In this document: piece after piece, positions 31,384-62,901 of the stretch | How the letters are laid out: every line of letters begins with the position of its first letter | How positions within the stretch are numbered: the stretch's first letter is position 1 | NCBI GenBank assembly: GCA_977020255.1 | Contig: CDROCS010001038.1 | Coordinates: forward strand, 1 to 64,000 | Direction: 5' to 3' | DNA: 64,000 nt | Source: Obrimoposthia wandeli | Lineage: Eukaryota | Notes under the pieces: model-generated | The model's database searches: none | Told to the model about the DNA's origin: nothing | What the model saw: only the letters and a program-made list of their open reading frames with translations | Made by a program: the position numbers and the translations under genes

Positions 31384-32420
31384 ATGGTAAGAACCTTTAT
31401 TTTTTTATTCTTTATTAATATTTATTATTTTAGATTACTTGTAATCTGTTTCCAGCGTATTGTACTGCTTCGGCTCCACTAGGAGGAGAATCCTGCATAA
31501 CAACAATGTTCGCCTACTATCGGGCAAAGTCTTATGGGCAGGTGTACTACATCTGCCCATTCTGCAGAACTATGGAGGACAAGGAGTTTCCAGTCTTCTT
31601 CAATGAACATCGAGCTTACTTGTCCTGCTTCAGGGCCAACAACTGGAAGAAGAGTATCGTCCAATTGGTGTGCGATTCGCTGATTGATCCAGCACCTGTT
31701 CAAGTTGCAGCGATAGCCTTTCAGTCTGTTTATGGTTCTAAGATTGGTCCTTCCCTCGACGTTCCGGAATCTTCAGCTGCCTCATCCACTCAACTGACTA
31801 ACAATGAGCCCACGCCGAATTTTAGGACTTTGTGCCAGCTACCCAACTCTTGAATAATGACTGGATGGATCAAATCACTCAGTCTGATTTCGAGATGGAG
31901 CAGCCTCAGTAAAGCGACAACATCTGGTTGGACGGCATCGAAGAATCCGACTTCGTCGAGTTAACAGACGACAACTGGATAGATGCTGTCAATGAAGAAG
32001 ACTTCCAACCAGCTACAGTTGGATCTTCTTCATCAAGTATTTCTTTTTATGATTTTTAAATTTTTTTAATTAAATATACTATATCAATTATTTAATTTTT
32101 ATTTTAATCATGAAATTCCTTGAGACAATCGATACCGTTGTCCACTATGGCAGCTATGCCTCCTCCATCGCGAGACCCTATATCGATGTTCGCACGCCTT
32201 AGAGATAATAATTAAATATAATTTATTTAATATATTTCTTTCAGCAGATGCATCATCATTCACAACAGTCACTTCCCGATCTTCCCCATCAGCAATATCA
32301 CATTCTTCGACGGTGGCATCACGATCAACTTTAACCGGCTTAAGAGGTTAATTATAAATTATATAAAATATTTATTGATATTTTTAAAAGCTTACAATCA
32401 GTCGCCTCAACCACAGCAGC
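31384..32420 (+). pseudogene. Spliced N-terminal leader of pPolB (element A): Cys/His domain, acidic Trp repeats, S/T/A linker
   Basis: ATG 31384-31386, 47-nt GT-AG intron 31387-31433, then ITCNLFPAYC...YICPFCR...EHRAYLSC. Further AT-rich introns separate the GC-richer exons. Homologous to 58578-59244. Confidence 0.7.
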
Positions 32421-32453
32421 ACCATCAACAAATGGATTTTTAAATATATATAG

Positions 32454-33007
32454 TTGTCTTCCCATTCAATTAGGGCCGGTTTGTCAGCGACAGTAGGAAG
32501 AAAGACGAACGGCCAAATTCTTAATAAAGCCTCAACTAAAAAACGTAGGGAAAACAGTACTACTATAGAGTATCACCTAAATAATAAATACATTATAGTA
32601 AAGGTGCGATTAGGAAATAAATTTTTATTAAACGTACGTGTAGATGCAAATATTGAAAGTCTTTTAAAATCAGAAGTGACAAAATTAGGCCAGGCTAAAG
32701 TTCAGTTTTGTGCAGCAGTGCAGTTTAAAAATGTCAATGAGGAGACTAAAACTTGGGTAATTTCATATAAAGCAACTGTTTTCTATGATAATTTTGTAAC
32801 TGAAATTGGAAGAAACCTATATGAAAAAATGGCTAATTATAGCGAGGTAAGTAATGGATGGACTCTAGTTAGAATTCACGATGTTAGCTTTGTTCTAACA
32901 AAGTTCACTGACATGATATATCTTTCGGGGAGTTCATACATTCCTTCACCTAGATCTCTTCAACTTTCACGTTCCATTGTTAACGTACAAAACAGTGATA
33001 ATCCAAT
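32454..33007 (+). pseudogene. pPolB N-terminal (terminal-protein region) fragment, element A
   Basis: SNGWTLVRIHD..GSSYIPSPRSL..IVNVQNSDN, typical of the Polinton pPolB N-terminus. Ends at a foreign segment. Confidence 0.8.
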
Positions 33008-35508: not shown

Positions 35509-35819
35509 ACGGTTTTCATTTTATTTGATTTTTTTAGTTTTTTAAAATTTTAGATCCCTATGGCACCTAGACTCTAACTTATATGTTATTTCAATACATT
35601 TTTTAGGATGAACCTTATCTTTGCTGACATATCTCATTGTGATGTTGTGATTAATAAATGTATTAAAAAATTTTGTCTTATGTCTTTTATTATTTTACCC
35701 TTATATTTTTAGAGATGTAAAAAATAATTCAAAATAAAACATTTAAAATATTTATTTTTACAACACACTAATTGTTTTGCAACGATAATCATAAAATACA
35801 TAAATGTCCACAGTTTCTC

Positions 35820-38555
35820 TGAGTATTAATGTATTCAAATATAATACTGATATCCCATTTAATGTAATAGACGAAGAAATTTTTAAAAATCCTTTTGTAG
35901 ATGTAATTTATAGGAGCAAAAATGAGGGGACTCAGGTCAACTTAATTTTGCTCGAACATAATAAAAAATTCCATTATGCTGCAATTCCCAATTTAGATCG
36001 TCTTCTAAATTTAGATAATGGAACCTTACCGGTTAGGATAAGGTGTAAGTGGTGTCATAGATGTTTGCATGGGTTCCGATCCGAGCTCTCTTACAGCAAA
36101 CATCTGACATTATGTTCACTGAATCCTGATGACAATACGCTATATAGCATGCCTAAGGATAAGGATTTAAAATTCAGGGATTGGGCAAAATGCATACCCG
36201 TGGAATTCAGGGTGTATGCATATTTTTAGTAAATTCTAGCTTTGCATGACCAGTATGAGAGTATTCACCTACCGGCTTCGGCAGGACTATTGTTCTTAGT
36301 CCCAATATAACTCATTATCATGAATTTTCCGGTCCAAATTGTATTTTAGATTTTATGTTAAAATAAGAGGAATTAGGAACCACTATTGTCAAACCGTGGT
36401 TTGATATTATTGCTCATCAAGCAATGATCATGACTGGCATAGATTGGATTAATTTTAATTCTAGTAGATCATGTTATTTGTGTTGTACTCAGTCTAGGTT
36501 AGTCAGAGATCACAATCATGTTACGGGGTTATACTTGGGAGCGGCGTGCAACCTTTGTAACCTTGGCCGTCGACTTCCTAAAAAACTACGCATTCCCATC
36601 GTGTTTCATAATCTCAAAGGATATGATTTGCATCATATACTTAAATACGCGTTGAGTACATTAAGCTCTTAGGAAATTTCGTGTATAGCTCAAACTTATG
36701 TTTAATATTTATCATTAACTGCATATACTGAATTTTGCAGTTTAAGATTTATAGATTCTCTGCAATTTTGAGTGGGTCTTTAAAAAAATTACCGTCATTT
36801 TTATATGCATGGCCAATTACACAGTCAGTGTTCCCTATGGTTCCCTATGGTTAATGATAAGACGATTTTACTTTATAAATTTGCGAAAACCTTTGCAGAT
36901 TTACAAAATGCAACAGAAATCCCGCCCATAACTGAATTCGTGAATGTAAGTTTTTAAAGACTATAATGAAGCACGTACATTTTCGGAGAGTAATCGTCAA
37001 AATCTTTTAAAGTAGATGCTTTATTATATGAAGTTAGATATTTATCTTTTAGCTGATGTGTTTGAGTACCTCCGTATACAATCTTTAGACGAAGATGGGC
37101 TAGATCCTATGCATATCTTTAGTTTACCTGGTCTTTCATGAGCAATGGCAATAAAAACTTTTCATATTAATGTCAAGTTACTGCAAGATCCCGCAATGTA
37201 TCAAATGTATGATTATGGTATACGCGGTGATATGACTTTTGTCAACAAACACAATATTTTCAAAAATAAATCCACGAAAATTCTTAACATCGACCTTAAT
37301 AATTTGTATGGGTGGGTGCTTACTCATTCTCTACATGCCAACTTTAAGTGGGTTTATGATGAGGAAGAGTTGAATAAGTTGATGACATATTTGGCTACTC
37401 TTGATTCAGTTTCATCAAACGTGATGAGGAAGAGTTGAATAAGTTGATGACATATTTGGCTACTCTTGATTCAGTTTCATCAAACGTCAGCTATTTGGTT
37501 GAGGTTGATTTAAAAAATCCTCCATATGTGCTTGATAAATTATATGATCTTCCAATAGCACCTGTCCATCAATGTCCTCCTAATTCAAAGGTTAAGAAAT
37601 TATTGTTAACACATGAAGACAAGTTGAATTATGTTGTGCATTGGCGGCTTCTTCAATTCTACTTAAAGCTGGGAGCGAAAGTTACTCGAATTCATCGTGC
37701 TATAAGCTTCAGTCAAAACTTTGTGTTTAAAGACTATATTGAGAAGAATTCTAGAAAACGTAATTTGGCCACTAGCAAATTCGATCTAGATTTTTACAAG
37801 TTAAAAAGTAATAGTCTCTTTGGAAAAACTGTAGAGGACTTGCGGAAACTTATTTGTCTACGGTTTTGCAATGATGAGCGTAAACTAATAACATATACTA
37901 GCAAGTACAAATTCAAGCGTAGTTTTACAATTGCAGATGACTTGGTAGCAGTGTTATTACGAAAACAGAGTATTTGTCTCGATCGACCGAGTTATATAGG
38001 TCAAACGGTTTTAGACATTTCTAAACTCAGAATGTATGAGCTGCAATATATAGAATTAGATAAATTGAGATCAAAAACGCAGCTGGGGACACTGACTCTT
38101 TCTTTTTAGAATGTAAACATGTTTATTTGCAAATTAAATTATTATCAGTAATATTTAGGACTAACTTACTTGATACCCATAGATATCCCGTTATCATTCT
38201 CTACACTCTATGAGTTTAAAGGACATTATCGGGAAATTTAAGGATGAAAGCGAGGGTCAGATTTTGTATGATGATAGTATTTTCCTACGCCCTAAATGCT
38301 ACAGTTTACATGCATCTAATAATACATGTTTTAATGAGAGCAAAGGGTGTGGGAAGAAACAATCTTACACATGAGACCTACCAGAATGTTTATGATACTG
38401 GGTGTATTGAAAGCGTTGAGCAAACTGGATTTATTTCAAGAGTCCATCAACTGAATTCCCATAAGTCAACAAAAATTGCTTTGAGTAGTAATGACGACAA
38501 GCGCTTTTGGGTAGAAAAGAACGCTAGCCAGGCTTATGGTCACTTTCAAATTTAA
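35820..38555 (+). pseudogene. Third, more decayed pPolB copy
   Basis: Same motifs (RDHNHVTG, IDLNNLYG, KLKSNSLFGK, GDTDS) split over several ORFs by stops and indels, including a 65-bp tandem duplication at 37357-37486. Confidence 0.9.
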
Positions 38556-38849
38556 ACGGTTTTCATTTTTTGATTTTATTTGTTTAGTGTTTTAAAATTT
38601 TAGATGCCTATTGCACCTTGACTCTAACTTTTTGTTATTTCGATACTTTTTTAGGTTGGGTCTTATCTTTGCTGACAGATCTCCATGTGATATTTTGCTG
38701 AATAAATGTATATAAAAATCTAGTCTTATGTCTTTTATTATGTTTCCCTTATATTTTGATCTTGTAGGGTTCTTTAAAAATATTTCAAAATAATACATGT
38801 TTTCAAAAAATATTTATTATTATAACACATTAACCTTTTTGCAACGATA

Positions 38850-45582: not shown

Positions 45583-45680
45583 AGTAGGTGGATGTGTCCG
45601 GTCTAATTCACACCCCCTCCCACCCCCCTACTGTCCTTTAAAACCGTGCATGTGTGTGGAGTGAAATTTCGTGTAGGTGT
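45583..45680 (+). repeat. Left terminal inverted repeat of element B
   Basis: About 90-100 bp imperfect inverted match to 62815-62901. Confidence 0.92.
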
Positions 45681-46219
45681 GTGGAGTGAAATTTCGTGTA
45701 TGTGTGTCTCCATTCCACCCAAAGGGGGAAGGAAGGGGGCACCCCCCTACTGTCCTTTAAAACCGAACATGTGTGAGGAGTGAAAATTCGTGTATGTGTG
45801 TCTTCATCCCACCCAAAGGAAGGAGGAAGGGGGTACCCCCTCCCGCACCACACTTTTAAAAAATTTTACCACGAATCTCAAAAGTGGTTAGAGAAGACCA
45901 CGAGAATCCATATTGACCCCGGCGGCTTTTCGCAGACGAGATTTCAAATATTACTACTTTTTTTAAGAAAGATTTTAGATTAATAAATTACTACATGTTA
46001 AATATCTATGTCAGTTTTAGAATTTAGAGGAGAAAAATCGGTCAGATCTATATAATTTAGAGGAGAAAAAAACAAAATACGAGACAAAATTATTTTTCAA
46101 AATATTTATTAATCATAAAACAACATATTGGCTTCACTCAAAGTCCAGAGAGGCTGCATTTTCCAGTCATCAGAAATATCTATTGAGACGTATTGAGATA
46201 TTCCATAGTTCTTCATCTA

Positions 46220-47651
46220 TACCTTTTCAAATTCAATATGGGAATAGTCAAATTCAATATGGGAATAGTCAAATTCATTATGGGAATAGTCAAATTCATT
46301 ATGGGAATAGTAAAAGGCATTATGAAAATTTACAAAGGTATTATAAAAATAAAATTTAGTCCAGCTCAATTTATTAATATAAAAATAAAAATTAGTCCAG
46401 CTCAATTTATTAATATAAAAATAAAAATTAGTCCAGCTCAATTTATTAATAGGTCATGTTGACCATATTCAATGCATCCGGCAGTAATCTTTGAATAGAT
46501 GCAATGAAATTGTTGCAAACAAATGGAGTAATTTCAGCCAAAGCGGCAGAAACAAACCCTTCAAGCTTCTGAAGACGAAACTCGGTTGTTGTAAGAGCTC
46601 CTTGCCCATTTCCTCGTAAAATTCCGGGCATTTCAACGGCTAACCTCCTTTCCACAGATGCTTTAATTTTGAACCAAGCATGCTCTATGGGGTTTAACAT
46701 AGGACTATAAGGCGCCAGCCTTAAAATCACATTTCCCTCAAACTCGGCCTCGCCAAGAACATCCTGTATTCTGGAATGGCAAGGCGCATTGTCAATTACC
46801 AAGACAACCTTGCTTTGGTGTAATTGCATGCCTTTCCTTAAACACACCCTGATCCATTCATTAGCTGCGTCCATCCTGAACGATCCCCTTTTTATCTCAT
46901 GGTGTACCATGCCCAGTGGCCCTATACATCCTATTAGATGTACATTAGCCCCTCTCGACCCACTGGTGACCACTGTACACCTGGTTCCCCTCCTTGATCT
47001 TCCTTCTTTCCTGGAGATGTGAATATTAAAATTCGTTTCATCCATAAAAAGAATTGGAAGGGTACCTGACTGGTGGTTTAAAAGATCAACTGCGAACAGC
47101 CTTCTTTTTTCTTTATTCTCAAGACAATTCTCCCTTTCAGGTTCATAACGTATTGCCTTGAGAGTATAAAGATGTGCGTCAAGGTGTAGACGCACGCATT
47201 CTTTGGTAACTTCCAAATCATACTCACCTCTGAGAAGTGCTGTCAACTCCTCGAGGGAAACCCTGGGATTTTTTTCAATCTCATTTATCATAAATGATTC
47301 ATGAGTTTCAAAAATCTTTTGGACACGAACTCCCCCTCTTGCGTCTTGTACATCACCGGTTTTAATCCACCTATAATAGGTACTGGACTTTACACCTAAT
47401 GTTTCAGCCAAAGCCCTCCAATCCCCGCCGGATGCATAAACTGCAAGGATCTGTGCTCTCTTTTCCTTGGTCTCATCTTTCTTGATTCTAGGATTAGGCA
47501 TTTAAGGGTTTTTTTATATTTTTAATGATTTCTGATTAATAATTTATTTATATTTAAATAATGTTCCCATATTGAATTTGACTATTCCCATATTGAATTT
47601 GACTATTCCCATATTGAATTTGACTATTCCCATATTGAATTTGAAAAGGTA
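46220..47651 (-). mobile_element. Intact IS630-Tc1-mariner transposon, 1432 bp, TA duplication
   Basis: TIRs TACCTTTTCAAATTCAATATGGGAATAGTC at both ends, flanked by TA at 46218-46219 and 47652-47653. 21-bp subterminal repeats at both ends. Confidence 0.95.
46446..47501 (-). CDS. DD35E transposase, 351 aa
   Basis: N-terminal HTH, FMDETNF, VIDNAPCH, PYSPMLNPIE. 35 residues lie between the second D and the E. Uninterrupted ORF. Confidence 0.95.
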   Translation of the reverse strand: MPNPRIKKDETKEKRAQILAVYASGGDWRALAETLGVKSSTYYRWIKTGDVQDARGGVRVQKIFETHESFMINEIEKNPRVSLEELTALLRGEYDLEVTKECVRLHLDAHLYTLKAIRYEPERENCLENKEKRRLFAVDLLNHQSGTLPILFMDETNFNIHISRKEGRSRRGTRCTVVTSGSRGANVHLIGCIGPLGMVHHEIKRGSFRMDAANEWIRVCLRKGMQLHQSKVVLVIDNAPCHSRIQDVLGEAEFEGNVILRLAPYSPMLNPIEHAWFKIKASVERRLAVEMPGILRGNGQGALTTTEFRLQKLEGFVSAALAEITPFVCNNFIASIQRLLPDALNMVNMTY

Positions 47652-48063
47652 TAGAATTGGAGCAATCAAATATCCTAGATCATCTTTAAAATCCAGACCG
47701 GGATCAGTTTCAAGCTGGAAACAATTTCCTTCATATACATAATCAGGAATGTAAAATCCCAAAATATCTTTCAATTGATCAATATCAGTTGTTGTTAAAA
47801 TTTCGATGAGATATTTATTCTGCACTTTTGATATTTTCACAGGATTCATAACTCGTATAATTTGATGCCTCTTTAATATATTACATAGTTTTCCTTTTGA
47901 AATTCTTTCTGGATAATAAAAATTTGCTACACATCTAAGGAAACTGATTAAAAACAATGTTTATAAAAAAATACATATAAGATACAAATAAGATACAAAT
48001 AAAACTGATTATTAAATGAAAGAAACACAGTAAAACCGATTACAATTTATTACACGCAAAAAG

Positions 48064-48540
48064 TTAAAACATAGAAATATGAGCACGTTCAATTTTTCAC
48101 ATAGGCAACTTCGTTCCCATTTCATCTGTCTTGTAACCATAAAGTCGAATTGTTAGAGTCCATTGCTTCTTTTTCGGAAACGCATCAATATCAACATATC
48201 TTCCATAGTCATCTAGAAATGCTTCATCGGCTCCTCGGATATAAAATTCGTTCTTATTGAAAGTAAAATTCGGAACTGCCTTTTCAACTTTCTGTTTAAG
48301 ATATTGAAATTCAGGTTTTTGAATATTTGATAGATAGTAGCTGAACTTTCTTCTTTCAATTGTCACAGGATTTACTAAAGCAATCAGTTGAGCCTTCTTC
48401 AAGAATCTGACTTTGTATTTGAAATATTGTTTCACTTCTTCATACATATCCTTATACGATTCTTCAAATATTTCTTCGTCATCGCTTAATACCCGTAGGC
48501 TATCGTCCATCGTTGATAATTGTCTTTGATATGCATGCAT
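48064..48540 (-). CDS. Unknown Polinton gene B (147-aa ORF; probable true end at 48064 past a TGA in place of Trp)
   Basis: After LPM* the same frame continues KIERAHISMF*. TATAAAAG lies about 35 nt upstream. Aligns with gene A. Confidence 0.65.
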
Positions 48541-48789
48541 TTACTGTGATTTGTCCTCCAATGGCGCATTCTTTTATACTAATTTCTAACAAAGACATGA
48601 ATCTCATTGGTTAATATAACTAAAGCATTGAATTTGATTGGACTAAATCTATATTAAAAATCAAAATTGATTGGAAGAAATATATCATCCAATTATAATA
48701 GGTTTGCAAGATAATTACAAGAAACGTGCAATAAAAAAGCAGGTTCAGACATATATAAAGAAGATTTTACAGAATACAATTTCAGTCTA
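48541..48789. promoter_or_regulatory. Divergent promoter region with a TATA box in each direction and CCAAT boxes
   Basis: Minus-strand TATAAAAG at about 48571-48578; ATTGG at 48606, 48637 and 48670; CCAAT at 48689; plus-strand TATATAAAG at 48752-48760. Confidence 0.55.
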
Positions 48790-49300
48790 ATGAAACTCGT
48801 AAATATAAATTATAAAGGTAGAACAGAAGATGATGTTTCGTACTTACCATTCAATGAATGGAAGCCGAGACAATATGTGGAAAAGTTTGACAATTTTACA
48901 GTTGTTATTTTTCCTACAGGTTAGTTTTTTATTTTCATATTGAATTCTTTTTGGAAATTGTCGTGTTATGGGATGCAAAATACCAATACTTGGGTTCAAT
49001 TTACCATTTGGAATTCGAATCACTGCAATACAATCAATCACAATTTCGGCTAATCTTGGGAAACAGATAAATCTTTTAAAAACTGCAGATAAAATGAAAG
49101 AAGAATGCATGTTTGAACCAGAAATTTTTCCTGCTCTCAGTTATTTGAAGTTTAAACCGCTATGTGTAAATATATTTTCCAGTGGTAAAGTTATGATATT
49201 GGGATTGAAAAATTTTGATTATCCAGACATTGTTGATTTGATTTTAGAAAATATATCTTATTACATCTTGTTATCTTTTTCTATAAACAAACCCGTTTAA
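48790..49300 (+). CDS. TATA-binding-protein (TBP)-like protein, two exons (48790-48919, 48954-49300), about 158 aa
   Basis: Repeat 2: IQSITISANLG..FEPEIFPALSYLKFKPLCVNIFSSGKVMILGLK, compared with TBP [41 protein letters not shown]. Repeat 1: KLVNI..TVVIFPTGNCRVMGCK, joined in frame by a 34-nt GT-starting intron whose acceptor reads TG instead of AG. Confidence 0.85.
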
Positions 49301-49314
49301 ACTTATTGTTTCAA

Positions 49315-49494
49315 ATGAATAATACTATAAATAGAGACAATGAAGTGGATCGTCTCGCCGACGAAATATTTTCTGGAAAAATTAGGGGTAAAGAAATTTT
49401 ATCAGAATTAAAAAATAATGATATAACAAGAGATAACATTGAAATAACATTAGATCACACGTTATTCGAGAATTTAGAAATCGTACACAAATAA
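49315..49494 (+). CDS. Small unknown Polinton ORF (59 aa)
   Basis: MNNTINRDNEVDRLADEIFSGK...LFENLEIVHK. Its 3' end is conserved at about 42430-42465 and 63495-63525. Confidence 0.5.
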   Translation: MNNTINRDNEVDRLADEIFSGKIRGKEILSELKNNDITRDNIEITLDHTLFENLEIVHK

Positions 49495-49623
49495 ATAAAA
49501 TTATAGCCAAATATTCATTAATTAATTTTTGTATTTCATCTACAATAACTCTAACATTGTACATTTCAATAAGGAAACTTCTATGATAATATAAACAATA
49601 TTAAAAATAAAAGAGTATATGCA

Positions 49624-50258
49624 ATGGAGCTAAATAATAATGCTGTATTTCAAATAGTTGGCCCTAGTGGAAGGGGAAAGACACATTTCGTCTGTAAATT
49701 GTTGCAAAATGAATCTCTTTTCAAATATAGTTTCAAAAATATTTATTGGCATCATGGTGGAGGTTAACCAAAACAGAAGTTTGCAAGTTGAAGGGTATAA
49801 AATTTTTTGAAGGATTTGATGCAAATTGGTGTGAAAGATTGAAAAAAGAAGATGTAATAATAATTTATGATTTGTATGAGGAGGCTAACAAGGAATCGGA
49901 CTTTAATAATTTATTTACAAAGATTGCAAGACATCGTGAAGTAACAGTTATATTTATCACTCAAAATCTGTTTCACCAAGGAGGTCACCATAGAACAAGA
50001 AATCTTAATGTACATTACTTAGTTTTATTTAAAAATCCTAGAGATCAAACAGTTGTTGATTATGTGGCCAGACAGGCATTTCCTCAAAATAAGAACTTTC
50101 TAGTTGATTCATTCCACGATGCTGCTAAACAAGCACATGGGTATATATTTATTGACTTTACACAAGCTTGCCCAGATGATTTACGTGTTTTAACAGACAT
50201 ATTTAATTCTAAGGGAGTAACTGTTTATAAACAAATAGAGAACAATTATAAAAAATAA
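49624..50258 (+). pseudogene. FtsK/A32-like packaging ATPase, frameshifted near 49765
   Basis: Walker A GPSGRGKT, IIIYDL, IFITQNLF, RTRNLNVHYLVLFKNPRD. A short deletion relative to the 42855 and 63600 copies shifts the frame. Confidence 0.92.
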
Positions 50259-50389
50259 ATTCGCAATGCCTTTTACAAAGTTGATAGTAAAACGTAAAGT
50301 AAAATCTAAGAAATCAAAAAAAAGAATCATTAAGAAAAAAGAAGTAAAAAAATAATTCAAATCTGTAGTTAGAAATAAAAAAAATTTAA

Positions 50390-50765
50390 ATGGCTTCGAA
50401 TATAAACAATATTTAAATTGAACCTTTTTTATTAAAATGAAAAAAATACAAAGAAGCATACCCTATTTTAAAGCTTTAGTCAAAGCCTCTTCTAATAAGA
50501 GAATGATTATTCTTAAAGCTTTTCCATCTTTTGTTGTAGATGATTTATTGGAAGTTTTGTATAATATAGTTTTGGGTCGAGTAAAAGTTGGAAATCGGAA
50601 AAATATATTAAAGAAATATAGAAAAACTCTTCTAGATATTGCTAATGTAAAAAGTAAAAAAGGAAACGAAATATTATTCTTAAACAAAATGGTGGTTTCA
50701 TAGGGGCTGTTATTCCAGTTGTTGCTTCAATTATCAGTAGTATTATAGCTGCGACACATTCATAA
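50390..50765 (+). pseudogene. Conserved Polinton small basic protein with GGF-hydrophobic tail
   Basis: YFKALVKAS..DDLLEVLYNIVLGRV..LKKYRKTL, then after a frameshift GGFIGAVIPVVASIISSII. Confidence 0.7.
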
Positions 50766-50851
50766 ACAATTATTTCTAAAATCAGCTAAAGATATGGGTG
50801 CTAGCCCTTCTTTACCTAAACTTAAATTTTCTTTCTATTCAAATTGTTGTA

Positions 50852-51701
50852 ATGGAGAAGATATGGTTCAATCCAAAAGATCCAATTGGCTACACAGGAG
50901 TTTCAAAATTAGCAAAAAGAACAAAACAAAATTACAAGAAAACGCAGAAATGGCTGAGCGACCAGTTACCCTACAGTCTGAACAAGCCGATGAGAAGAAG
51001 GTTTCCAAATAGAGCTTACAAAACCAGCGGTCTTAATAATTTATGGCAAATGGATTTGATGGAGATGATCCCATATTCTTCCATTAATAAGGGATATCGA
51101 TATATTTTAACATGTATTGATGTATTTAGCAGGTACAATACAAAGCAGCAGTAGTAGAAAGATTTAATCGTACTCTAAGAGATCGAATAAAAATGTATTT
51201 CACAAAAGAAGGAAATAAAAAATGGATCCAAGTTTTATATAAAATAATACATGCATATAATCACTCTGAACATAGAGGTCTCAAGGGAATGAGACCTGTT
51301 GATGTTACTAATAAAAACTCTATGGACATTTGGATGAACAGGAATAAAAAAGATAAAATTAAAAAAGCTAAATATAAGAAAAACGAATATGTTCGAATTT
51401 CAAAAATTAGCTCTACTCCATTTATTAAAAACTTCGATCAGAATTGGAGCGATGAAATATTTTGTATAAGTAAAATTGATCAAAAGAGTAATCCAATAAT
51501 GTATACTATTAAAGATGCTGACAGTAATATCCTTCACGGTAAATTTTACGAGCAAGAACTACAAGTAATATCAAATAAACTTAGCGTTTTCCGTATTCAA
51601 AAAATATTAAATCTAAGGGTACAGGTAAACATAAACAATACTTTGTTAAATGGCATGGTTATTCAGACCCAACTTGGATATCAGCATCTAATATAATATG
51701 A
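50852..51701 (+). pseudogene. Retroviral-like integrase with C-terminal chromodomain; internal deletion
   Basis: WQMDL, IDVFSRY, AAVVERFNRTL, AYNHSEHR and chromodomain QYFVKWHGYSDPTW. The segment carrying the second catalytic Asp is missing at about 51135. Confidence 0.92.
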
Positions 51702-52760
51702 AGTCTATGTATATGGTTTTACCTAGTAACGGATGTCCGAAGACTCAACCAGATAATTACGCTAGTAGCTTTATTATCGATTGGGAAAATCCTATAAATC
51801 TCCAAGGAGAATGGAAAGCGGCTTTAACCGAATTTTCTTTTTATTATTCTCCAATTACTATCAGAAAAAACTCACATATTTCGTTTACAAAAGAAGTTGA
51901 TCATGAAAAAACAACTAAAGTTGTGATCGGGTTTGATAGTAAAGGAAAATTATTTTACAATTGTATAGATAAAGAAGTGAAAGTAATATATGAAAAAAAC
52001 AAAGTCAGATTTAAAAATCGATCAAAACATTTTCAACCTATTCAAATTATATTCGAATCTGGAAAAGAAGCTCTTCAATTCGGTTTTGATAGTGGACATG
52101 TAGTAGGTATGAAGAGATCTGATATTGTCTCATCTAAAATGTTTAAAAATGTTCCTAGTAGAGTAGTAAGAGTGTTGTTAGTTGAAACGAGACCAAAGAC
52201 TGTAGTGGAACTGAAAATGTTTTCAAAAGATTATAAAATAGATAGTGAAGTGAATTTCTGTAAATTACTACAGAAGGAATGTAGTGAATAATTGGATAAA
52301 TGTGAAACATTAAAAAAATGGTAAAATAACGTTTACAGTAATGAGCAATATAAAACGAGTTTCATTTGATGATAAACTCGCTAAAAACCTTGGTTTAAAC
52401 AGAAATACCTTTGAAACCCATACAATAAAAACCATAAAAGCTAAAAATAAGGCAAAACTTTTAAATGCTGTTAATCATTTATATATTTATACTAATTTAA
52501 TAGAACCAACGCTTGTTGGAGGACAACGAGTTCCACTTTTGAGAACAATATGGATATCTAAAAATGAAACTAAAGATGGTGACGCTGTCGGTATGTGTAT
52601 AGATCAACCAATGTATCTTCCAGTTGCTCTCTTTTCTATAAACAATATTGAAGTAAATATTAGAGATGATTCCGGACAACTCATAGATTTCACGTACGGG
52701 GCCAAGACAAGTTTAACAATACATTTAAGAAAACAAAATGGCGAATCTAGCAATAATTGA
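51698..52760 (+). pseudogene. Minor capsid (penton-like, PX) protein, frameshifted at about 52290-52320
   Basis: MYMVLPSN..PDNYASSF..L.GEWKAALTE and LYIYTNLIEPTLVGG..PLLRTI..IEVNIRDDSGQLIDF..LTIHLRK. Confidence 0.9.
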
Positions 52761-53115
52761 AGCTTATAGTCAAAGCCAACAAGGTGGAGAATTACCATAT
52801 TTTGTTGGCAAACAATATGGATCTGGCTGGCTTAGAACATTAGGTAGATTTGCCTTTCCTCTTTTAAAGAGACTCGGGCGATTTATATCAAAATTAGGAA
52901 AGGATTACCTTTCATCTTAGGACAACAATCTAATACCAACTTTTAAGAAGCATGCGCTTGATGAACTTGATAATGTTTTGCCTGAAGTTGCTAATTTGAT
53001 TAGAAAACGTAAATCAAATAAAGGCCAAGGAGGTAGTGGATTTAAAAGTAAAAAGAAGCTAAAAATTAATATAAACAAACGTAAGAAAGTTGAAGGAACA
53101 ATATTTGCAAAATGA
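52738..53115 (+). pseudogene. Basic core-like Polinton protein, premature TAG at 52918-52920
   Basis: QQGGELPYFVGKQYGSGWLRTLGRFAFPLLK, continuing past the stop to a Lys-rich tail. The element A copy has Lys at the stop position. Confidence 0.7.
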
Positions 53116-54340
53116 GTTGCGCCAAAACCGAATTGTGTATTTTTGATAAACCGCTTCCACAAGTAGTTGTAGATAATGCTTCCTTTGAAGAAATATTCCT
53201 AGTTAACTCAGTTTCAGGAACCACTTTAACCGATTTAGAATTTAATATTAATGGTTCCAATAGCGAGTATTTAGATTTGAATGATACTTTGCTTTATGTT
53301 CAAATAAAAGTATTACATCGGGATGGTACTAATTTAGATGAAAATGCCGATGTAACACCTGTAAATTATCTCTTTAATTCATTATTTAATGATGCCATTG
53401 TTACTCTTAATAATGTCAAAATTGAAGGTGGAAATTCTTCCTATGCTCATAAAGCTTTGATTGAAAGTCTTTTGAATTATAGTACTGATACTCAAAATAC
53501 TAATTTGGCAACCATTGGTTATGATAAAACTGTTGCAACTCGCAAAGAATGGATTGCAGGTTCTAAAGCTTACGAAATGTGTGGGTATTTGAGATTGAAT
53601 TTCTTTGAACAACCGAAATATTTAATTCTCGGTGTTAATGTACACCTTCGTTTGAAACGTAATAAATGGAATTTTTCTTTGATAAGCACAGACGTTCTAA
53701 AACCTAGACTTGATATTTTGGATGCAAAATTGTATGTCCGAAGAGTTAAAACCGAGCAATCAGTTTTAATGGCACATAATATGGGAATGGAAAAAACAAT
53801 GCTTGTTATCCTATTAGAGAAACTAAACTTATATCTTATTCTTTAGGTACGGGTACACAAGCTTTTAATAAGGATCACATTTTTGGTGATGTAAGATTAC
53901 CGAAATTCATTTTAATTTCTTTTCAAAAAACTGCAAAGTTTCTAGGAAATTATACGACAGATGCAACTCAATTTGACAATCTTAGTGTAGGTTCAGTGAC
54001 ACTTTCAAGAAATACTGATTATCGTGAAACATATAAAACAAATTTCGAAGGTAACACTTATGCTTTGGCTTATACCCAATTTATTATTCGTAATTTGGGT
54101 CAACTAGATAAAAATATAAACAATGGTATTTCTTTCACTGAGTTTAAAAGTAGCTGCCCGTTCTTCACATTCGTTTTGGCACCAGACTTTGATATAAACC
54201 AATGCCAACTACCAAATGATGGAAATTTACGACTAGAAATTAAGTTCAATGCAGCTTTAACACATTCTACTACGGTGCTTATTTACGGAGTATTTGATTC
54301 GGAAATACAAATCAATAAAAACAGAACTGTCATATTATAG
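53112..54340 (+). pseudogene. Major capsid protein (double jelly-roll, PY), frameshifted near 53800
   Basis: CAKTELCIFDKP..LEFNI.G..EYLDLNDTLLY..; ILDAKLYVRRV; GNLRLEIKF..L..STTVLIYGVFD..IQINKNR. Confidence 0.92.
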
Positions 54341-54341
54341 A

Positions 54342-54725
54342 ATGGAGTAAGACATATTTTAAAATTATATTTATTAATTTTTATGTAGTTCAAAACAAGT
54401 AAAAGAATCAGCAGACAAGGTCCTGGGTGATAAATTCAATAGAGTTTATCCTATTGATATGATTCCATTTTTTCAATCTGGAGGTTACATTATCAATACC
54501 CATACTTCGAATTTACCAGGAGAACATTGGATAGCTATTTATGTTAGAGAGTGGACAATACATGTATTTGATCCACTTGCAATGTATTATCCACACAAAC
54601 TTGTTTCGACTATTCAAAAAGGACGAAGAAGATTATTTTACAACAAGATACAATATCAGGATCCTGCGACGAGAAACTGTGGACATTTATGTATTTTATG
54701 ATTATCGTTGCAAAACAATTAGTGT
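54342..54725 (+). CDS. Adenain-like cysteine protease, two exons (intron 54347-54388), TGA at 54699-54701 just after the catalytic region
   Basis: MD|SKQVKES..NTHTSNLPGEHWIAI..FDPL..QYQDPATRNCGHLC, giving a His/Asp/Cys triad and the oxyanion Gln. Confidence 0.88.
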
Positions 54726-54981
54726 GTTGTAAAAATAAATATTTTAAATGTTTTATTTTGAATTATTTTTTACATCTCTAAAAATATAAGGGTAAAATAA
54801 TAAAAGACATAAGACAAAATTTTTTAATACATTTATTAATCACAACATCACAATGAGATATGTCAGCAAAGATAAGGTTCATCCTAAAAAATGTATTGAA
54901 ATAACATATAAGTTAGAGTCTAGGTGCCATAGGGATCTAAAATTTTAAAAAACTAAAAAAATCAAATAAAATGAAAACCGT

Positions 54982-57132
54982 TTAAATTCTGAAGTGTCCA
55001 TAAGCCAGGCTAGCGTTCTTTTCTACCCAAAAGCGCTTGTCGTAATTACTACTCAAAGCGATTTTGGTTGATTTATGGGAATACAGTTGATGGGCTCTTG
55101 AAATAAATCTAGTTTGCTCAACGGTTTCAATACACCCAGTATCATAAACTTTCCGGTAGGCCTCATGTGTAAGATTGTTTCTTTTCACACCCTTTGCTCT
55201 CATTGAACATGTATTATTAGATGCATGTAAACTGTAGCATTTAGTGCGTAGGAAAATACAATCATAATACGAAACCTGTCCCTCGCTTTCATCCTTAAAT
55301 TTCCCGATAATGTCTTTTAAACTCATAGAGTGTAGAGGATGGTTAGCGGGATATTTATGGGTATCTAGTAAGTTGTCCCTAAACATTGCTGGTAATAATT
55401 GATTATTTAAACTAACATTCTTACATTCTAAAAAGAAAGAGTCAGTGTCCCCTGCCGCGATTTTGATCTCACAATTAAATTCTTGTCGGTATTTCTCCAA
55501 TTCTATGTATTGAAGCTCATACATTCTGAGTTTAGAAATGTCTAAAACCGTTTGACCTATATAACTCGGTCGATCGAGACAAATACTCTGTTTTCGTAAT
55601 AACACTGCTACCAAGTCATCTGCAATTGTAAAACTACGCTTGAATTTGTACTTGCTAGTATATGTTATTAGTTTACACTCATCATTGCAAAACCGTAGAC
55701 AAATAAGTTTCCGCAAGTCCTCTACAGTTTTTCCAAAGAGACTATTACTTTTTAACTTGTAAAAATCTAGATCGAATTTGCTAGTGGCCAAATTACGTTT
55801 TCTAGAATTCTTCTCAATATAGTCTTTAAACACAAAGTTTTGACTGAAGCTTATAGCACGATGAATTCGAGTAACTTTCGCTCCCAGCTTTAAGTAGAAT
55901 TGAAGAAGCCGCCAATGCACAACATAATTCAACTTGTCTTCATGGGTTAACAATAATTTCTTAACCTTTGAATTAGGTAGGCATTGATGAACAGGCGCTA
56001 CTGGAAGATCATCTAATTTATCATGCACATTGGGAGGGATTTTTATGTCCACCTCAACCAAATAGCTAACGTCGGATGAAACTGTATCAACAGTAGCCAA
56101 ATCTGTCATCAACTTATTCAACTGATCCACATCATAAACCCACTTAAAGTTGGCATGAGGTAGAGGTTGAGTAAGCGCCCACCCATACAAATTATTAATA
56201 TCGATGTACAGAATCTCCGTGGATTGATTTTTGACAACATGATGTTTGTTGACAAAAGTCATTCCACCGCGTATACCATAATCATACATTTGATACATCG
56301 CGGGATCTTGCAGTAACTTGATATTAATTTTAAGAGTTTTTATTGCTGTTGCCCATGAAAGACCAGGTAAACTAAAGAAATGCATGGGATCTAGCCCATC
56401 TTCTGCTAAAGATTTTACACGAAAGGACTCAAAAACATCAGCTAAAAGATAAATGTCTAACTTCATATAATAAAGCATATATTCTAAAAGATTTCGACAA
56501 TTATTTGCCCAAAATGTACGGGCATCATTATAGTCTTGAAGACTTACACCCTCATATTCAGTTATAAGTGGGATTTCAGTTGTATTTTCTAAATCTGCAA
56601 AAGTTTTCGCAAATTTATACGGAAAAATCCCCTTATCGTTAACCGAAGCTGGGAACACTGACTGTGTAATTGGCCTTGCATTTAAAGATGCCATTTTATT
56701 TTTTAAAGAACCACTCAAAAACTGCAGAGAATCTATGAATCTTAAACTGCAGAATTCAGTATATGCAGTTAAAGATAAATATTTCTCTGAAGTTTGAGGT
56801 ATACATGAAATTTCCCAAGAGCTTAATGTACCCAACGCATATTTAAGTATATGATGCAAATCATATCCTTTGAGGTTATGAAACACAATGGGAATTCGTG
56901 GTTTTTTAGGGAGACGACGGCCAAGGTTACAGAGGTTGCACGCCGCTCCTAAGTATCGCCCCGTAACATGATCGTGATCTCTGACTAACTTAGACTGGGT
57001 TCCACACAAATAACATAATCTACTAGAATTAAAATTAACCCAGTTTATGCCTGTCATGATCACTGCTTGATGAGCATTAAGATCATACCACGGTTTGACA
57101 ATTGTTGTTCCTAATTCCTCTAATCTTAACAT
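54982..57132 (-). CDS. Protein-primed family B DNA polymerase, 716-aa uninterrupted C-terminal part
   Basis: Endonuclease VII-like RDHDHVTGRYLGAACNLCNL, exonuclease motifs FHNLKGYD and FIDSL, polymerase motifs YIDINNLYG, KLKSNSLFGK and AGDTDS. Confidence 0.96.
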   Translation of the reverse strand: MLRLEELGTTIVKPWYDLNAHQAVIMTGINWVNFNSSRLCYLCGTQSKLVRDHDHVTGRYLGAACNLCNLGRRLPKKPRIPIVFHNLKGYDLHHILKYALGTLSSWEISCIPQTSEKYLSLTAYTEFCSLRFIDSLQFLSGSLKNKMASLNARPITQSVFPASVNDKGIFPYKFAKTFADLENTTEIPLITEYEGVSLQDYNDARTFWANNCRNLLEYMLYYMKLDIYLLADVFESFRVKSLAEDGLDPMHFFSLPGLSWATAIKTLKINIKLLQDPAMYQMYDYGIRGGMTFVNKHHVVKNQSTEILYIDINNLYGWALTQPLPHANFKWVYDVDQLNKLMTDLATVDTVSSDVSYLVEVDIKIPPNVHDKLDDLPVAPVHQCLPNSKVKKLLLTHEDKLNYVVHWRLLQFYLKLGAKVTRIHRAISFSQNFVFKDYIEKNSRKRNLATSKFDLDFYKLKSNSLFGKTVEDLRKLICLRFCNDECKLITYTSKYKFKRSFTIADDLVAVLLRKQSICLDRPSYIGQTVLDISKLRMYELQYIELEKYRQEFNCEIKIAAGDTDSFFLECKNVSLNNQLLPAMFRDNLLDTHKYPANHPLHSMSLKDIIGKFKDESEGQVSYYDCIFLRTKCYSLHASNNTCSMRAKGVKRNNLTHEAYRKVYDTGCIETVEQTRFISRAHQLYSHKSTKIALSSNYDKRFWVEKNASLAYGHFRI

Positions 57133-58578
57133 AAAATCTAAAATACAATTTGGACCGGAAAATTTATGATACTGTGTAATATTGGGGCCTAAGAATAGTA
57201 GTCCTGCCGAAGCCGGTAGGTGAATACTCTCATACTAGTCGTGCAATGCTAAAATTGACTCAAAATCTGCATACACCCTGTATTCCACGGGTATGCATTT
57301 TGCCCAATCCCTGAATTTTAAATCTTATCCTTAGGCATGCTATATAGCGTATTGTCATCAGGATTCAGTGAACATAATGTCAGATGTTTGCTGTAAGAGA
57401 GCTCGGATCGGAACCCATGCAAACATCTATGACACCACTTACACCTTATCCTAACCGGTAAGGTTCCATTATCTAAATTTAGAAGACGATCTAAATTGGG
57501 AATTGCAGCATAATGGAATTTTTTATTATGTTCGAGCAAAATTAAGTTGACCTGAGTCCCCTCATTTTTGCTCCTATAAATTACATCTACAAAAGGATTT
57601 TTAAAAATTTCTTCGTCTATTACATTAAATGGGATATCAGTATTATATTTGAATACATTAATACTCAAGTTATTAAGATGTTCAAATCTTGATATCGCAG
57701 TTAATTTAACAGGAAAATCTATTCCATGATACTGCAATTCATTTTAAAAAGGGGTATATTTACTGACACGCTCTCTATGCTCAGTAATTACATCCCTTTT
57801 GAGGATGGCCAACACGCTATACAGAAAGCAAAGGTTATCACTGTTTTGTACGTTAACAATGGAACGTGAAAGTTGAAGAGATCTAGGTGAAGGAATGTAT
57901 GAACTCCCCGAAAGATATATCATGTCAGTGAACTTTGTTAGAACAAAGCTAACATCGTGAATTCTAACTAGAGTCCATCCACTACTTAACTCGCTATAAT
58001 TAGCAATTTTTTCATCCAGGTTTCTTCCAATTTCAGTTACAAATTATCATAAAAAACAGTTGCTTTATGTGAAATTACCCAAGTTTTAGTTTCCTCATTG
58101 ACATTTTTAAACTGCACTGTTGCGCAAAATTGAACCTTAGCCTGTCCTAATTTAGTCACTTCTGATTTTTAAAGATTTTCAATATTTGAATCTACACCTA
58201 CGTTTAATAAAATTTCATTTCCTAATGGCACCTTAACTATAATATATTTATTATTTAGGTGATACTCTATAGTAGCACCGTTTTCTCTACATTTTTTTGG
58301 TGGGACCTTATTAAGAAATTGGCCTCGCCTCTTTCTTCCGTTTGTCGCTGACAAACCTCCCCCTAATTGAACGGGAAGACAACTAGTTATATTAATCGCA
58401 GCTGAGGTTGAAGGTGCTGCTATTGGTGATGCTGCCGATGTTGAGGCAACCGTAGCTGATGTTGAAGGGGCTACTGTAGCAGGTGCTGCCGATGTTGATG
58501 AGACAGTGGCAGTTGTAGAGGCTGCATTTGAAGCTGACCTTGCCGATGAAGAAGCGGCTGTTGTAGAGGTTAGTGCTG
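57133..58578 (-). pseudogene. N-terminal part of pPolB (S/T/A linker, LGGG, terminal-protein region), several frameshifts
   Basis: ALTSTTAASS...VQLGGGL..SGWTLVRI..GSSYIP..CFLYSVLA..GIDFP..SINVF..YADF. Confidence 0.85.
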
Positions 58579-58625
58579 CTGAAATAAATATATTAAAAAA
58601 TAAATATATTTTTAAAAATTATTAC

Positions 58626-59244
58626 CTCTAAGGCGTGCTAACATCGATGTAGGCGCTCGCGATGGTGGAGGCATATCTGTTGTAGCAGTTGTTATCGCTC
58701 CACTGAGGCTGCTCCATCTCTAAATCTGACTGGGTGATATTTTCCATCCAGTCATTGTTTGAGAATTGGGTTGCTGGTGCCAACTCCTCAAAATTTTCTT
58801 AGGAGATGTCGTTCATCCACTCATTGTTAGACATTTGAGTGGATGGGGCAGCAGCAGAATCAGGAGCAGGGAGAGAAGGACCAATGGCAGGACCGTAAAA
58901 GGGTTGATCGACTGCAACTGAAATTGGAGGTGGAACTGGAGCGGCCTGCGAATCGCGCACCAATTGCATGATATCCCTCTTCTTGTTGTTGGCCGTGAAA
59001 CACGATAGATGAGCTCGATGTTCACCGAAGAAGTCTCGAAATTCCTTCTCCTCCATTGTTTTTCAGAATGGGCAAACGAAGAAGTGAAGACCGCGAGACT
59101 TTGTCCGATAGTATGCAAACATTGTCTCCATGCAGGTCTCTCCTCCATGCGGAGCCGAAGCACCACAATATGCGGGAAACAGGATACAAGTAATCTGAAA
59201 TAATAAATATTAATAAGGAAATAATAAATATAGATTCTTACCAT
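58626..59244 (-). pseudogene. Spliced leader exons upstream of pPolB (element B)
   Basis: ATG 59244-59242, 47-nt intron 59241-59195, exon 59194-58626, 47-nt intron 58625-58579, all GT-AG. Two premature stops and one frame change. Confidence 0.75.
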
Positions 59245-59345
59245 AGGCAATATTTCAAATTGTCGGGGATTTAAATGAAGAAAGTGTTTGCTTATATACT
59301 AAAATTTATGCACACATGCTCTTTTCCAATTGGATTAAAAAATTG

Positions 59346-59470
59346 AATTTATTCCTCCAATGAGAAGGATTGTTTATCAGTTATTGGTTGAAAAAAAAAT
59401 TTATTCCTCCAATTAAAGAGAAGGATTGTTTATCTGTTATTGGTTGAAAAAATAATTTTATTCCTCCAAT
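59346..59470. repeat. About 55-bp direct repeat (2 full copies and 1 partial) containing CCAAT and ATTGG
   Basis: The unit AATTTATTCCTCCAAT..GAGAAGGATTGTTTATC.GTTATTGGTTGAAAAA is repeated upstream of the leader/pPolB gene. Confidence 0.8.
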
Positions 59471-59516
59471 CAAAAGGCTTATTTGTAAATATTTGTAAAT
59501 AATTCAGTCTTTCACG

Positions 59517-59726
59517 TTAAGATTGGTATATATTGTCAATTCTCCTATGAATATTAAAATTAATTATATTAAATGTAAACATACCTAAATATTTCAAAAT
59601 TAAATTACATATTGTATATCCAATGGTATCCGTACTATCATTTACTGAAAAGTAAATTTTTTTATAATCTTCCATTAAATCTGGAGATAATTTTATGAAT
59701 AATTTATTCCAATTTTTATTATCCAT
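59517..59726 (-). CDS. Small unknown Polinton ORF (69 aa)
   Basis: ATG-initiated ORF between the other minus-strand accessory genes. No recognisable motif. Confidence 0.4.
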   Translation of the reverse strand: MDNKNWNKLFIKLSPDLMEDYKKIYFSVNDSTDTIGYTICNLILKYLGMFTFNIINFNIHRRIDNIYQS

Positions 59727-59810
59727 TTTACAAAAAAACTTTATATTTAAATTTGTTTATATTTAGACAATTTTATAACATAATGAATAAAGACAAAGTA
59801 ATCAATAAAA

Positions 59811-60134
59811 TTAATTTTTTTTTGTGGAAGGACCCTCTTCCGGTTTAATCTGAAGGATTCGCTTTCTTGCTGCTCGTCGAACATCCTCCGTCTCTTCTCT
59901 TCTTTTTTCCTCCACCTTCTTTTTTTCCATTTCGATTTTCTTGTTCCACTCCACGACCCGACGTCGTTCTGCTAGCCGCCTGTCCTGAATCTCCATCCGA
60001 CGATTCCACTCGGTCGCGACAGCAGTATACAAATTCTGGTTGAGGATCCTCTTTCGTAAGTCTCCTTTCTTCTCATTTATTCTTATGTTTGCCTCGATCA
60101 TCGTCACCAAACTTTGCAATTTAATAAATTCCAT
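59811..60134 (-). CDS. Charged coiled-coil-like Polinton protein (107 aa)
   Basis: Intact GC-richer ORF rich in E/K/R, with a TATATATA box about 35 nt upstream. Confidence 0.65.
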   Translation of the reverse strand: MEFIKLQSLVTMIEANIRINEKKGDLRKRILNQNLYTAVATEWNRRMEIQDRRLAERRRVVEWNKKIEMEKKKVEEKRREETEDVRRAARKRILQIKPEEGPSTKKN

Positions 60135-60425
60135 TTTTTAATTATGAATATGTTAATAAATTTGAACCTATATATATATAAATTTAAGATATTTTTAATC
60201 CAATCATAAGCAATTAAAATATATTTATCAAATGAAAGTTTAATAAATATATAACTAATCATTGCATTTATATTTAATGCTAAAAAATTTTAATTATTCC
60301 TTAATAATCCAATCACATTCGAATAAGTTAACTTTATTTTTAATCTTGTTATTTTAATAAACTTAAGGAGGATATTTTAATATTACTAAATTCTAAAATA
60401 AATAATAAAAAGACAACACAAGAAA

Positions 60426-62435
60426 CTAATTTTTGTAAATTATATTTTTAAACATTTTTACGAAGTCATCATTGGGATCATCCGGGTCGTATTCCCTCCG
60501 ACTAAGTATAATTGGAGAAAGCGGTACTGGTTCCTTCTTCTTTGGCCTGCCCGGTTTCTTTTTCGGCTTCACCGGTTGCTGTACAGCATTTGTCCTTCCC
60601 TCAGGTTTTGGCAATAGTTGCCGCAATATTTTGGGAGGAGGTGCAGCCGATGTTGATGGCCCCGACATAGAAGCAGTAGCCTTCCTCTTCCGCGGAGCTT
60701 TCTTCTGTTTCTCCTCCTTCTCACGCTGAAGCTGGCGTGAGACCGCATCCTGTTGCCCACGCGAATCTGGAAGCATTACCGGTGTATCCAGTTCCGCCAG
60801 GAATTCGTCCAAACCAGCGTCATCCCAGGCCCTCTTCAAGTTCTGGCTGGTAGTTGGACGAGGAGAAGCAGTCTCATGCAGACGTGGTTGACTCGAGGGC
60901 GGACTTATCTCGATCGGCGAGACTGGGATCCTCTCGTATAAAATTGGACCGTCGTCCACTGGAGATGGGAGAATCTCCTGCTGGCCAATCACCGCCTCAG
61001 AATAATGGCCAATTGAGGTGCGAATTTTTCTCGAGCGCTTCGTCTTTTTCACCTCTGCCCGCTTTGTCCTTTTCTTAGGGAAAGGAGTAACTTCTCCCCA
61101 AGTCTCCTCAATTATCCGGACAGGTTCCTGCAAATGTAAACATTAATAAAATTTCAAATAAATTTTATTTAATTAAAAAAATATTTAAAATACCAAAAAA
61201 TTACCTCAATACTCATATACGGAAGTTTTTCCTGCCGCTCAATCGTTACTTCGCTCGATTTGAGCAGACAGGATTTCGCCTTTCTAAGACGCCGTGTCTT
61301 CCGTACAGCAGCCCGCCTCGTTCGCTTCTGTGGGAAAGGAGAAATTTTGGCCTATGTCTCCTCAGTTAATTGTATTGGTTCCTGCAACAACAAAAACATT
61401 AATAAAATTTAAACATATAAATAATTTACCTCTATGACGGGCAGATTAGCCTGTTTCACCAACTTGGCCTTCTTCCGATGGACCGTATTGGTTTTGACCC
61501 GGTGGCGTCGAGGTTTCTTAATCGCCGCTTGCTTCCTATCGACGGGTAGTCTCCGAGTTGCCTCCTCCCAAATTTCCTCCACCAATTCAGCTTCCTATTT
61601 GAATAATTAAATAAATTTACTAATTTATAATAAAATACCTCAAATTTAGCCGGAATCGGTAGGTAACGCTGATCACTCCTGGGATCATCCTGGCTACATT
61701 GACTCGCCAAGTACTGCGGTTCAATTAGACTCTCAATCGTGGTCACTGACGGTGCCAAATCCAGTTGCAGTTTCTGAAAATAAAATTAAAAAACATTTTA
61801 AATAAATGATGTCTAACCTCATTCGTCGCCTTTATTCTCCTAACAGGACGTATCGGAGATTGTGGTCTTCTGAATGGATCAGGCACTGCATTGTCGGGTA
61901 TTGGAGTCGGAGTTGTAGAGGGAGTGAGACCATCCCATTCGTCGGTGAACAGATGCCACTCATCTTAATCCAATTCTGCAACCATGGACTCGTTGGCTCC
62001 TGGGACTCCGATACTTGGCTGTATCCATTCCTCCCCATCCGACGAAAAGTCATCAGTAAACCGCTCCTCGTCTGAGTATGGTGCCAGTATTATCTCCGGT
62101 TGAGACAGCAGGATCAATTTCCAGGGGCATTTGATTGCCGCCTCAAAATTGTCGAAGAGATTGGATCTCCTTGCTGCTACTGCTGAAGTTGCCGGACGAT
62201 TGGCTTCTGTGTTCAGCCTGGGAGTACAGTCTTCCCAATTCTCTATCGAATCCTGACTAGTCAGATCGATATATTGGGATCTCTGTACCCCACCTCGTAC
62301 GCTCATTGGTTCTTCTCTTGGAGTTGAGCTGGCCAATGGTGCTTCTTCTTGTAACAGCTCCGCTCTTGCTGCTGCTTCTCCTTCGTCTCCTTAGCTCACC
62401 ACCGACGAGTCTTGACTAAGTAAGTCAATGTACAT
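60426..62435 (-). pseudogene. Five-exon, about 598-codon disordered Polinton protein, 3 premature stops, no frameshift
   Basis: Exons 62435-61818, 61773-61639, 61594-61430, 61381-61205 and 61127-60426, all multiples of 3. Four GT-AG introns (44, 44, 48, 77 nt), each after GAG. Confidence 0.85.
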
Positions 62436-62814
62436 TTAAGGTCATGATGACTAATTTGATGATTCACCAAATAAAAATGAAAATTATTTCGAATTTATGT
62501 AGTTGATTATTTAAAATCTTTTGCGACCCTATATATGTATCTTTCTTATAAATTCTTATAAAGAAAATTTTTTTTACGACCTTGTATATATGTATGGATA
62601 TAAATTTTCTCGCGTATAATTTTTCGCGAGCCTGTATGTATTACTCGTTGATCCACTGCGGGCCCGGAGGGCACGCTTTGGCCAAATTTACGGCCTCTCA
62701 GGACCTTAATCAAAATTTTGGGAGCATTATGAGATTTTTAAATTTAAAGGGTGTTATATGGAGTTAATTTTTTTTGAGTGTTTGGGAGGGGGGGTGTAGA
62801 ACATTTTTCTACAA

Positions 62815-62901
62815 ACCTGCACGAAATTTCACTCCACACACATGCACGGTTTTAAAGGACAGTAAGGGGGGTGTGGATTAGACCGGACACATCCACCTAC
62901 T
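62815..62901 (-). repeat. Right terminal inverted repeat of element B
   Basis: Reverse complement reads AGTAGGTGGATGTGTCCGGTCTAATCCACACCCCCC..CTGTCCTTTAAAACCGTGCATGTGTGTGGAGTGAAATTTCGTG. Confidence 0.92.

Follow-up and report, generated by a model that had tools for sequence, protein, structure and literature searches.

The window, a 64,000-nucleotide stretch from the AT-rich, 1.35-Gb genome of Obrimoposthia wandeli, contains two decayed Maverick/Polinton copies, denoted A and B, in opposite orientations. Element B (positions 45583..62901) is bounded by terminal inverted repeats with AGT ends (AGTAGG), and an identical 6-mer on either flank constitutes a 6-bp target duplication. Its ORFs comprise decayed pPolB, PRO, capsid-like, integrase-like and ATPase-like genes. 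Pfam matches to rve (E 3e-4) and DJR (E 0.014) are weak and lie under the Pfam cut-offs, and the ATPase and PRO, for which Pfam gave no match, were recognised by eye from their motifs. PRO (54342..54701, plus strand) carries His, Asp and Cys motifs and, on the strength of these family motifs, is taken here to be an adenain-like protease. The polymerase is a protein-primed PolB with an N-terminal OTU domain, as in Mavericks/Polintons of the Alpha adintovirus type, and the accessible texts on Alpha adintoviruses and Mavericks describe a set of OTU-bearing PolB, adenain, rve integrase, ATPase and capsid genes, with terminal repeats and a 6-bp target duplication (PMC8502044, PMC8097293, 10.1101/2022.07.12.499685). 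Element B is very probably an Alpha-type Maverick/adintovirus, judging from its sequence, and the copy in the window is dead. It also contains a TBP-like domain (48944-49300, plus strand; PF00352, E 4e-12) and, inserted near its left end, a DDE_3 (Tc1/IS630-like) transposase frame with 351 open codons (46446-47501, minus strand). Near its right end, upstream of the polymerase leader, GC-richer ORF pieces (59811-62390, minus strand) resemble further spliced accessory genes; three ORFs of this region had no Pfam match.

The pPolB gene lies on the minus strand and begins its conserved part with a terminal-protein (TP, D1) domain at 57910..58290, followed by a vOTU cysteine protease domain (57490..57909) and by a Cys/His finger, an exonuclease with an endonuclease-VII-like insertion and the polymerase domain (54982..57445). 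In the window copy the TP is interrupted by a stop at 58171 and a frame break near 58040, and the frame breaks again near 57320. Pfam families PF03175 and PF02945 were found on the homolog P0003 (47% identical), PF03175 being absent from the window ORF itself. The predicted TP fold corresponds to that of PRD1-like terminal proteins, with a four- or five-stranded sheet, two helices and a Ser/Tyr between alpha2 and beta4 beside Gly/Pro; the predicted linking Ser, invariant among homologs, falls near 57981-57983. The vOTU has a predicted OTU fold and conserved catalytic Cys (~57830) and His (~57515), and is apparently active. A Gly at the TP/vOTU boundary (~57908; position 155 of alignment A1) is kept in 40/42 homologs and is a candidate vOTU cut site, although it may be structural instead. 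The available text of the Polinton pPolB study by Krupovic et al. (10.1101/2024.03.18.585575) describes the same TP-vOTU-Exo-Palm order in one chain, with a little-finger-like D1, whose linking Ser lies between alpha2 and beta4, and an active-looking vOTU, and it proposes that the vOTU processes pPolB and frees the TP, some pPolBs remaining unprocessed.

Upstream of the TP, element B retains a damaged leader, also on the minus strand. A TATA-like box (59291..59298) precedes the start codon by about 50 nt, and among the 75 anchored siblings 67 have a TATA[TA]A sequence at a distance of 45-65 nt from the ATG on the upstream side, a count made without a control against an AT-rich background. The coding part of exon 1 is a lone ATG with a phase-0 donor (59242..59244), separated by a predicted 47-nt GT..AG intron (59195..59241) from exon 2, which encodes a Cys/His module of about 80 aa (58955..59194) and acidic Trp repeats (58692..58830), four in siblings and shortened in this copy. 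Downstream lie a remnant of exon 3 (58626..58684), a further predicted 47-nt GT..AG intron (58579..58625) and the start of exon 4, an S/T/A-rich linker of variable, in-phase length (58370..58578) that leads into QLGGG (58355..58369, within VQLGGGL, the Q at 58369). A basic stretch resembling a nuclear localisation signal follows on the TP side (58292..58336). Element A carries an A-type leader (31384..32500, plus strand), decayed, with one extra linker intron and its GG motif frame-broken; this leader likewise opens with an ATG exon (31384-31386) and a 47-nt intron. These features bear out what a sequence-only reading had proposed for the start of the gene in both elements, and for the second 47-nt intron, linker and VQLGGGL of element B. 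The exon pattern that it gave, C-x6-C...CPFC...H-x-x-(H/Y)-x-x-C, is found in element A (as H-x-x-Y-x-x-C), but in element B a stop (59065) succeeds CPF, so that the full CPFC is lacking there.

The same reading had the leader of element B running in phase into the linker. This does not hold for the window copy, whose leader frame is closed by stops at 59065, 58801 and 58630: the stretch between its two 47-nt introns measures 569 nt (2 mod 3), which rules out an in-phase product. The cause is a deletion at 58684..58692, where about 200 nt present in siblings are gone. Thirty of 39 siblings carry 105-261 additional nt at this junction, and in the siblings read across it this stretch takes in the last part of exon 2, the whole of an AT-rich intron and the opening of a short exon 3. 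The supposed second intron of element B is accordingly the third of the family, one intron and one exon having been overlooked.

The family gene structure was reconstructed from these siblings. A DNA search of the genome with the B leader gave 1,427 first-look candidates and therefore points to a large family. Neighbourhoods of 39 B-type and 38 A-type copies were read (4/38 A-type not anchorable); chosen as the best matches and descended from few masters, these copies do not provide counts of independent events. In the B type the ATG is followed by three introns that alternate with exons 2, 3 and 4, at phases 0, 1 and 1. Intron 1 is GT..AG in 36/39 B-type and 28/34 anchored A-type siblings, intron 2 (54-124 nt) in 31/32 B-type copies and intron 3 in 28/29 measurable ones. 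Of the 33 B-type copies in which exon 2 could be measured, 24 keep it in phase, at four different lengths (526, 532, 568 and 619). Exon 3 measures 87 nt and is in phase in all 31 measurable copies (93 nt in most A-type siblings), and both of its other frames, considered as alternatives, contain majority stops. From the start of exon 4 to the Q, 23/25 copies are in phase despite seven lengths between 167 and 275. All three junctions with GT-AG, kept phase and stop-free exons 2-3 coexist in 13/39 B-type siblings. The A-type copies, which are older, are noisier (exon 2 in phase in 11/21, exon 3 in 13/16, exon 4-to-Q in 4/8; none of 34 complete). Where the site could be located, QLGGG is kept in 20/25 B-type and 3/9 A-type siblings. 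Some A-type copies, including L046, L051 and L054 and the one in the window (at about 32348-32391), have a fourth intron of 44 nt within the linker, so intron number varies within the family. The PRO gene also seems to open with a micro-exon, here followed by a GT..AG intron of 42 nt (54342-54388, plus strand), and start-codon micro-exons may thus be a habit of the family.

Eighteen of the 39 B-type siblings span from QLGGG to the end of the polymerase. Across their 1,130 codon columns there is one majority stop, which is the last column, and other in-frame stops are confined to one or two copies each; no stop that would part the linker from the polymerase is conserved among them. One frame thus runs from QLGGG to the polymerase stop, and the commonest class of precursor would comprise about 328 + 1,129 residues. 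In one sibling exon 4 has no Met ahead of the end of the TP domain, and the TP therefore needs the upstream exons. When the leader exons were pooled, synonymous changes made up a larger share of the common variants than of the private variants (53 S/96 N versus 60/198; Fisher p=0.008), and the TP showed the same excess (p=1e-4). The signal is weak when exon 2 is restricted to its first 270 nt (p=0.07, with much the same N/S ratio in another frame), and six common in-frame stop variants fall within its last 180 nt. Contigs from four runs of one study, of unknown kind and DNA-like, cover the introns, and none of the joints listed for them falls on a predicted splice site, which is evidence neither way. 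The leader pattern is far beyond chance at the family level, and we regard the predicted four-exon spliced structure as very probable.

Homologs from other organisms point to the same continuity between leader and polymerase. Six long homologs were found, among which P0003 (1,235 aa), P0004 and P0006 are intact, unspliced single ORFs in which one, two or three N-terminal module copies are fused to the polymerase. The earlier proposal of a leader-TP-polymerase polyprotein is thereby well supported, as a single spliced precursor, given the sibling phases, the stop-free downstream frame and these fused homologs; what it missed is the vOTU inside the precursor. For the wider comparison, 59 representatives of the TP were collected, of which 26 were dropped as too short and 33 had at least 30 residues upstream. 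A Cys/His pattern precedes the TP in 15 of these 33, judged by eye to be module-like in 13 and ordinary C2H2 fingers in two; P0004, P0006, P0023, P0044, P0051 and P0055 have two or three tandem modules ahead of the TP. Outside module stretches (n=11) align with exon 2 at 19-33% identity, with invariant Tyr, Cys, Phe and His.

The module probably binds zinc. Pfam returned no family at a meaningful level for exon 2, and no finger. The structural model has medium confidence (pLDDT 68), its Foldseek rows being weak ones to Kaiso fingers (E 0.65, 35 columns), and Foldseek against the PDB gave no match at E<=0.001 for either model; a PDB sequence search had no match. Used singly as a query sequence, the exon-2 module had no match among longer proteins, and a module profile search retrieved seven proteins, six of which were its own inputs. 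The best ESM Atlas score was an uninformative 0.80, and a phage collection gave no match; a metagenome locus scan produced 147 pattern matches, none confirmed.

Ahead of the TP, the sequence QLGGG belongs to a class of glycine motifs, [Q/M]-x-G-(G or x-G). Within 45 residues before the TP this motif occurs in 14/33 homologs, compared with a mean of 0.52 and a maximum of 4 in 2,000 shuffles, a comparison that is post hoc because the pattern was chosen after viewing the homolog sequences. It occurs in 1/191 downstream windows. The strict adenain consensus precedes the TP in 4/33 homologs (shuffle mean 0.94). QLGGG itself suits the adenain substrate form in both registers, (M/I/L)xGG/X and (M/I/L)xGX/G, with Gln tolerated at P4. 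The sequence-only reading had placed a cleavage site at LGGG; a glycine motif does stand at that place, but the homologs favour a register with Gln at P4 (Q-L-G-G/G). The same motif recurs in genes at 50685..53040 (plus strand), as Q-N-G-G at 50685, Q-Q-G-G at 52777, Q-Y-G-S-G at 52813 and Q-G-G-S-G near 53026; only in-frame, in-gene cases were weighed, since a six-frame scan gives many chance matches. We take these genes to be putative core-protein genes, a label that comes from their layout and not from a database match.

Cleavage of Q-L-G-G/G by PRO is likely the best reading of the site. Precedents are given in the accessible texts: adenain takes Gln at P4, it cuts the HAdV-E4 pTP at QRGF/G, leaving the C-terminal TP on the DNA (PMC4246237), and adomavirus core proteins bear adenain motifs and appear cleaved (10.1101/341131). 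We consequently favour, with a probability of roughly 55%, a four-exon precursor of about 1,450 residues from which the leader would be trimmed off the TP at Q-L-G-G/G by the adenain-like PRO. The precursor would comprise, in order, the Cys/His module, acidic repeats, flexible linker, QLGGG, TP, vOTU and polymerase. The basic stretch after the site would bring the precursor into the nucleus, and, if the proposal of Krupovic et al. applies, the vOTU would release leader-TP from the polymerase near the conserved boundary Gly. The leader-TP could then behave like adenoviral pTP, as primer on new 5' ends, and PRO would take the leader off, probably during particle maturation alongside the core proteins with the same motif. 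As for the leader's own job, our guess is DNA or protein binding by the Cys/His module and recruitment of host factors by the acidic repeats.

The same spliced precursor might instead be cut by its built-in vOTU, the main rival enzyme for this site, or by a host SUMO/ubiquitin-type protease. Di-glycine is the recognition end of OTU/Ulp enzymes, and L-G-G-G also suits the LxGG ends that OTU enzymes cut. Cleavage at L-G-G-G or Q-L-G-G would then occur soon after synthesis, and the leader, freed early, would be no substrate of maturation. The conserved catalytic residues and OTU fold of the domain agree with this, as does the published proposal that the vOTU processes pPolB, but many homolog motifs are Q-x-G-x-G and lack the di-glycine, and the motif is common to separate putative core proteins whose adenoviral counterparts are adenain substrates. 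We regard early release as unlikely.

Somewhat less probable still is a spliced precursor that keeps its leader, in which case the glycine motif would be a relic or serve as a flexible hinge. Most homologs (19/33) lack the motif within 45 residues of the TP, among them 6/13 module bearers and the fused P0004 and P0006, in which the module is present, and certain pPolBs are reported to remain unprocessed; against this, the fixed Q/M at P4 and the fixed place just before the basic patch and TP, far above shuffles, exceed what a hinge needs. Finally, the leader exons could mainly encode a separate small regulator through intron retention or early polyadenylation, with the polymerase starting elsewhere, e.g. 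at an exon 3 Met, as a stop a few codons into a retained intron 2 and an in-frame Met in exon 3 of many siblings would allow, but phase is maintained over all three junctions and the module is fused to the polymerase in unspliced homologs, making this a remote prospect.

Processing of the leader by PRO would find its closest parallel in adenovirus, where, in the text available, adenain/AVP cuts the N-terminal part off the TP precursor at glycine motifs, among them one with Gln at P4, and the C-terminal TP stays attached to the DNA (PMC4246237). In contrast to the fused precursor described here, adenoviral pTP is a separate protein and the vOTU on the adenoviral polymerase is inactive; the proposed parallel is one of processing. 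The pTP ORF of THEV is described as spliced in the accessible part of its report (PMC11304566). The TP-vOTU-polymerase core is already published; the predicted spliced leader and the glycine motif before the TP appear to be new. Unlike our precursor, the pPolB in the available text of Krupovic et al. is described with two domains, D1 and D2, and with no leader module, glycine site or introns before the TP, and "zinc" and "intron" have no occurrence in that text, SI figures apart. Among openly readable texts, supplements apart, a literature search turned up no description of a leader on a Polinton polymerase or of a motif at which it is cleaved, which does not establish absence from print. The strings "QxGG" and "QxGxG" were absent among the matches listed, and substrates of the animal Maverick protease had no description in the literature searched. 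Introns also set the family apart: core genes of vertebrate and nematode Mavericks are intronless in the texts at hand (PMC8097293, 10.1101/2022.07.12.499685), a usual but not defining trait, whereas here polymerase and PRO have predicted spliceosomal introns, those of the polymerase kept in phase across siblings. Introners occur within dinoflagellate polinton-like elements, according to the available text of PMC12166617.

The motif common to the polymerase precursor and the putative core proteins is testable and offers a peptide assay for the Maverick protease, and it is relevant to the question of particle formation and maturation by animal Mavericks. Where a Maverick polymerase gene has introns, annotation that relies on ORFs overlooks both its true start and the entire TP. 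More speculatively, and in our estimate with the odds against it, a widespread animal Maverick clade might make a true "pre-terminal protein" within its polymerase precursor, whose uncatalogued zinc module and acidic, activator-like leader would be removed by the virion protease at the core-protein motif. If so, this would be the first defined recognition rule for a Polinton protease, it would imply TP-capped genomes matured inside particles, and it would serve as a living model for how a TP fused to the Polinton polymerase became the pTP of adenoviruses.

Over 1,722 nt of the polymerase gene (33157-34878 and 55930-57651), elements A and B show 100% identity, a common frame break included, while their leaders are only about 76% alike. 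This points to recent recombination, to gene conversion or to an effect of the assembly. In element A a second copy of the polymerase, about 90% identical, lies in tandem at about 35800-38570.
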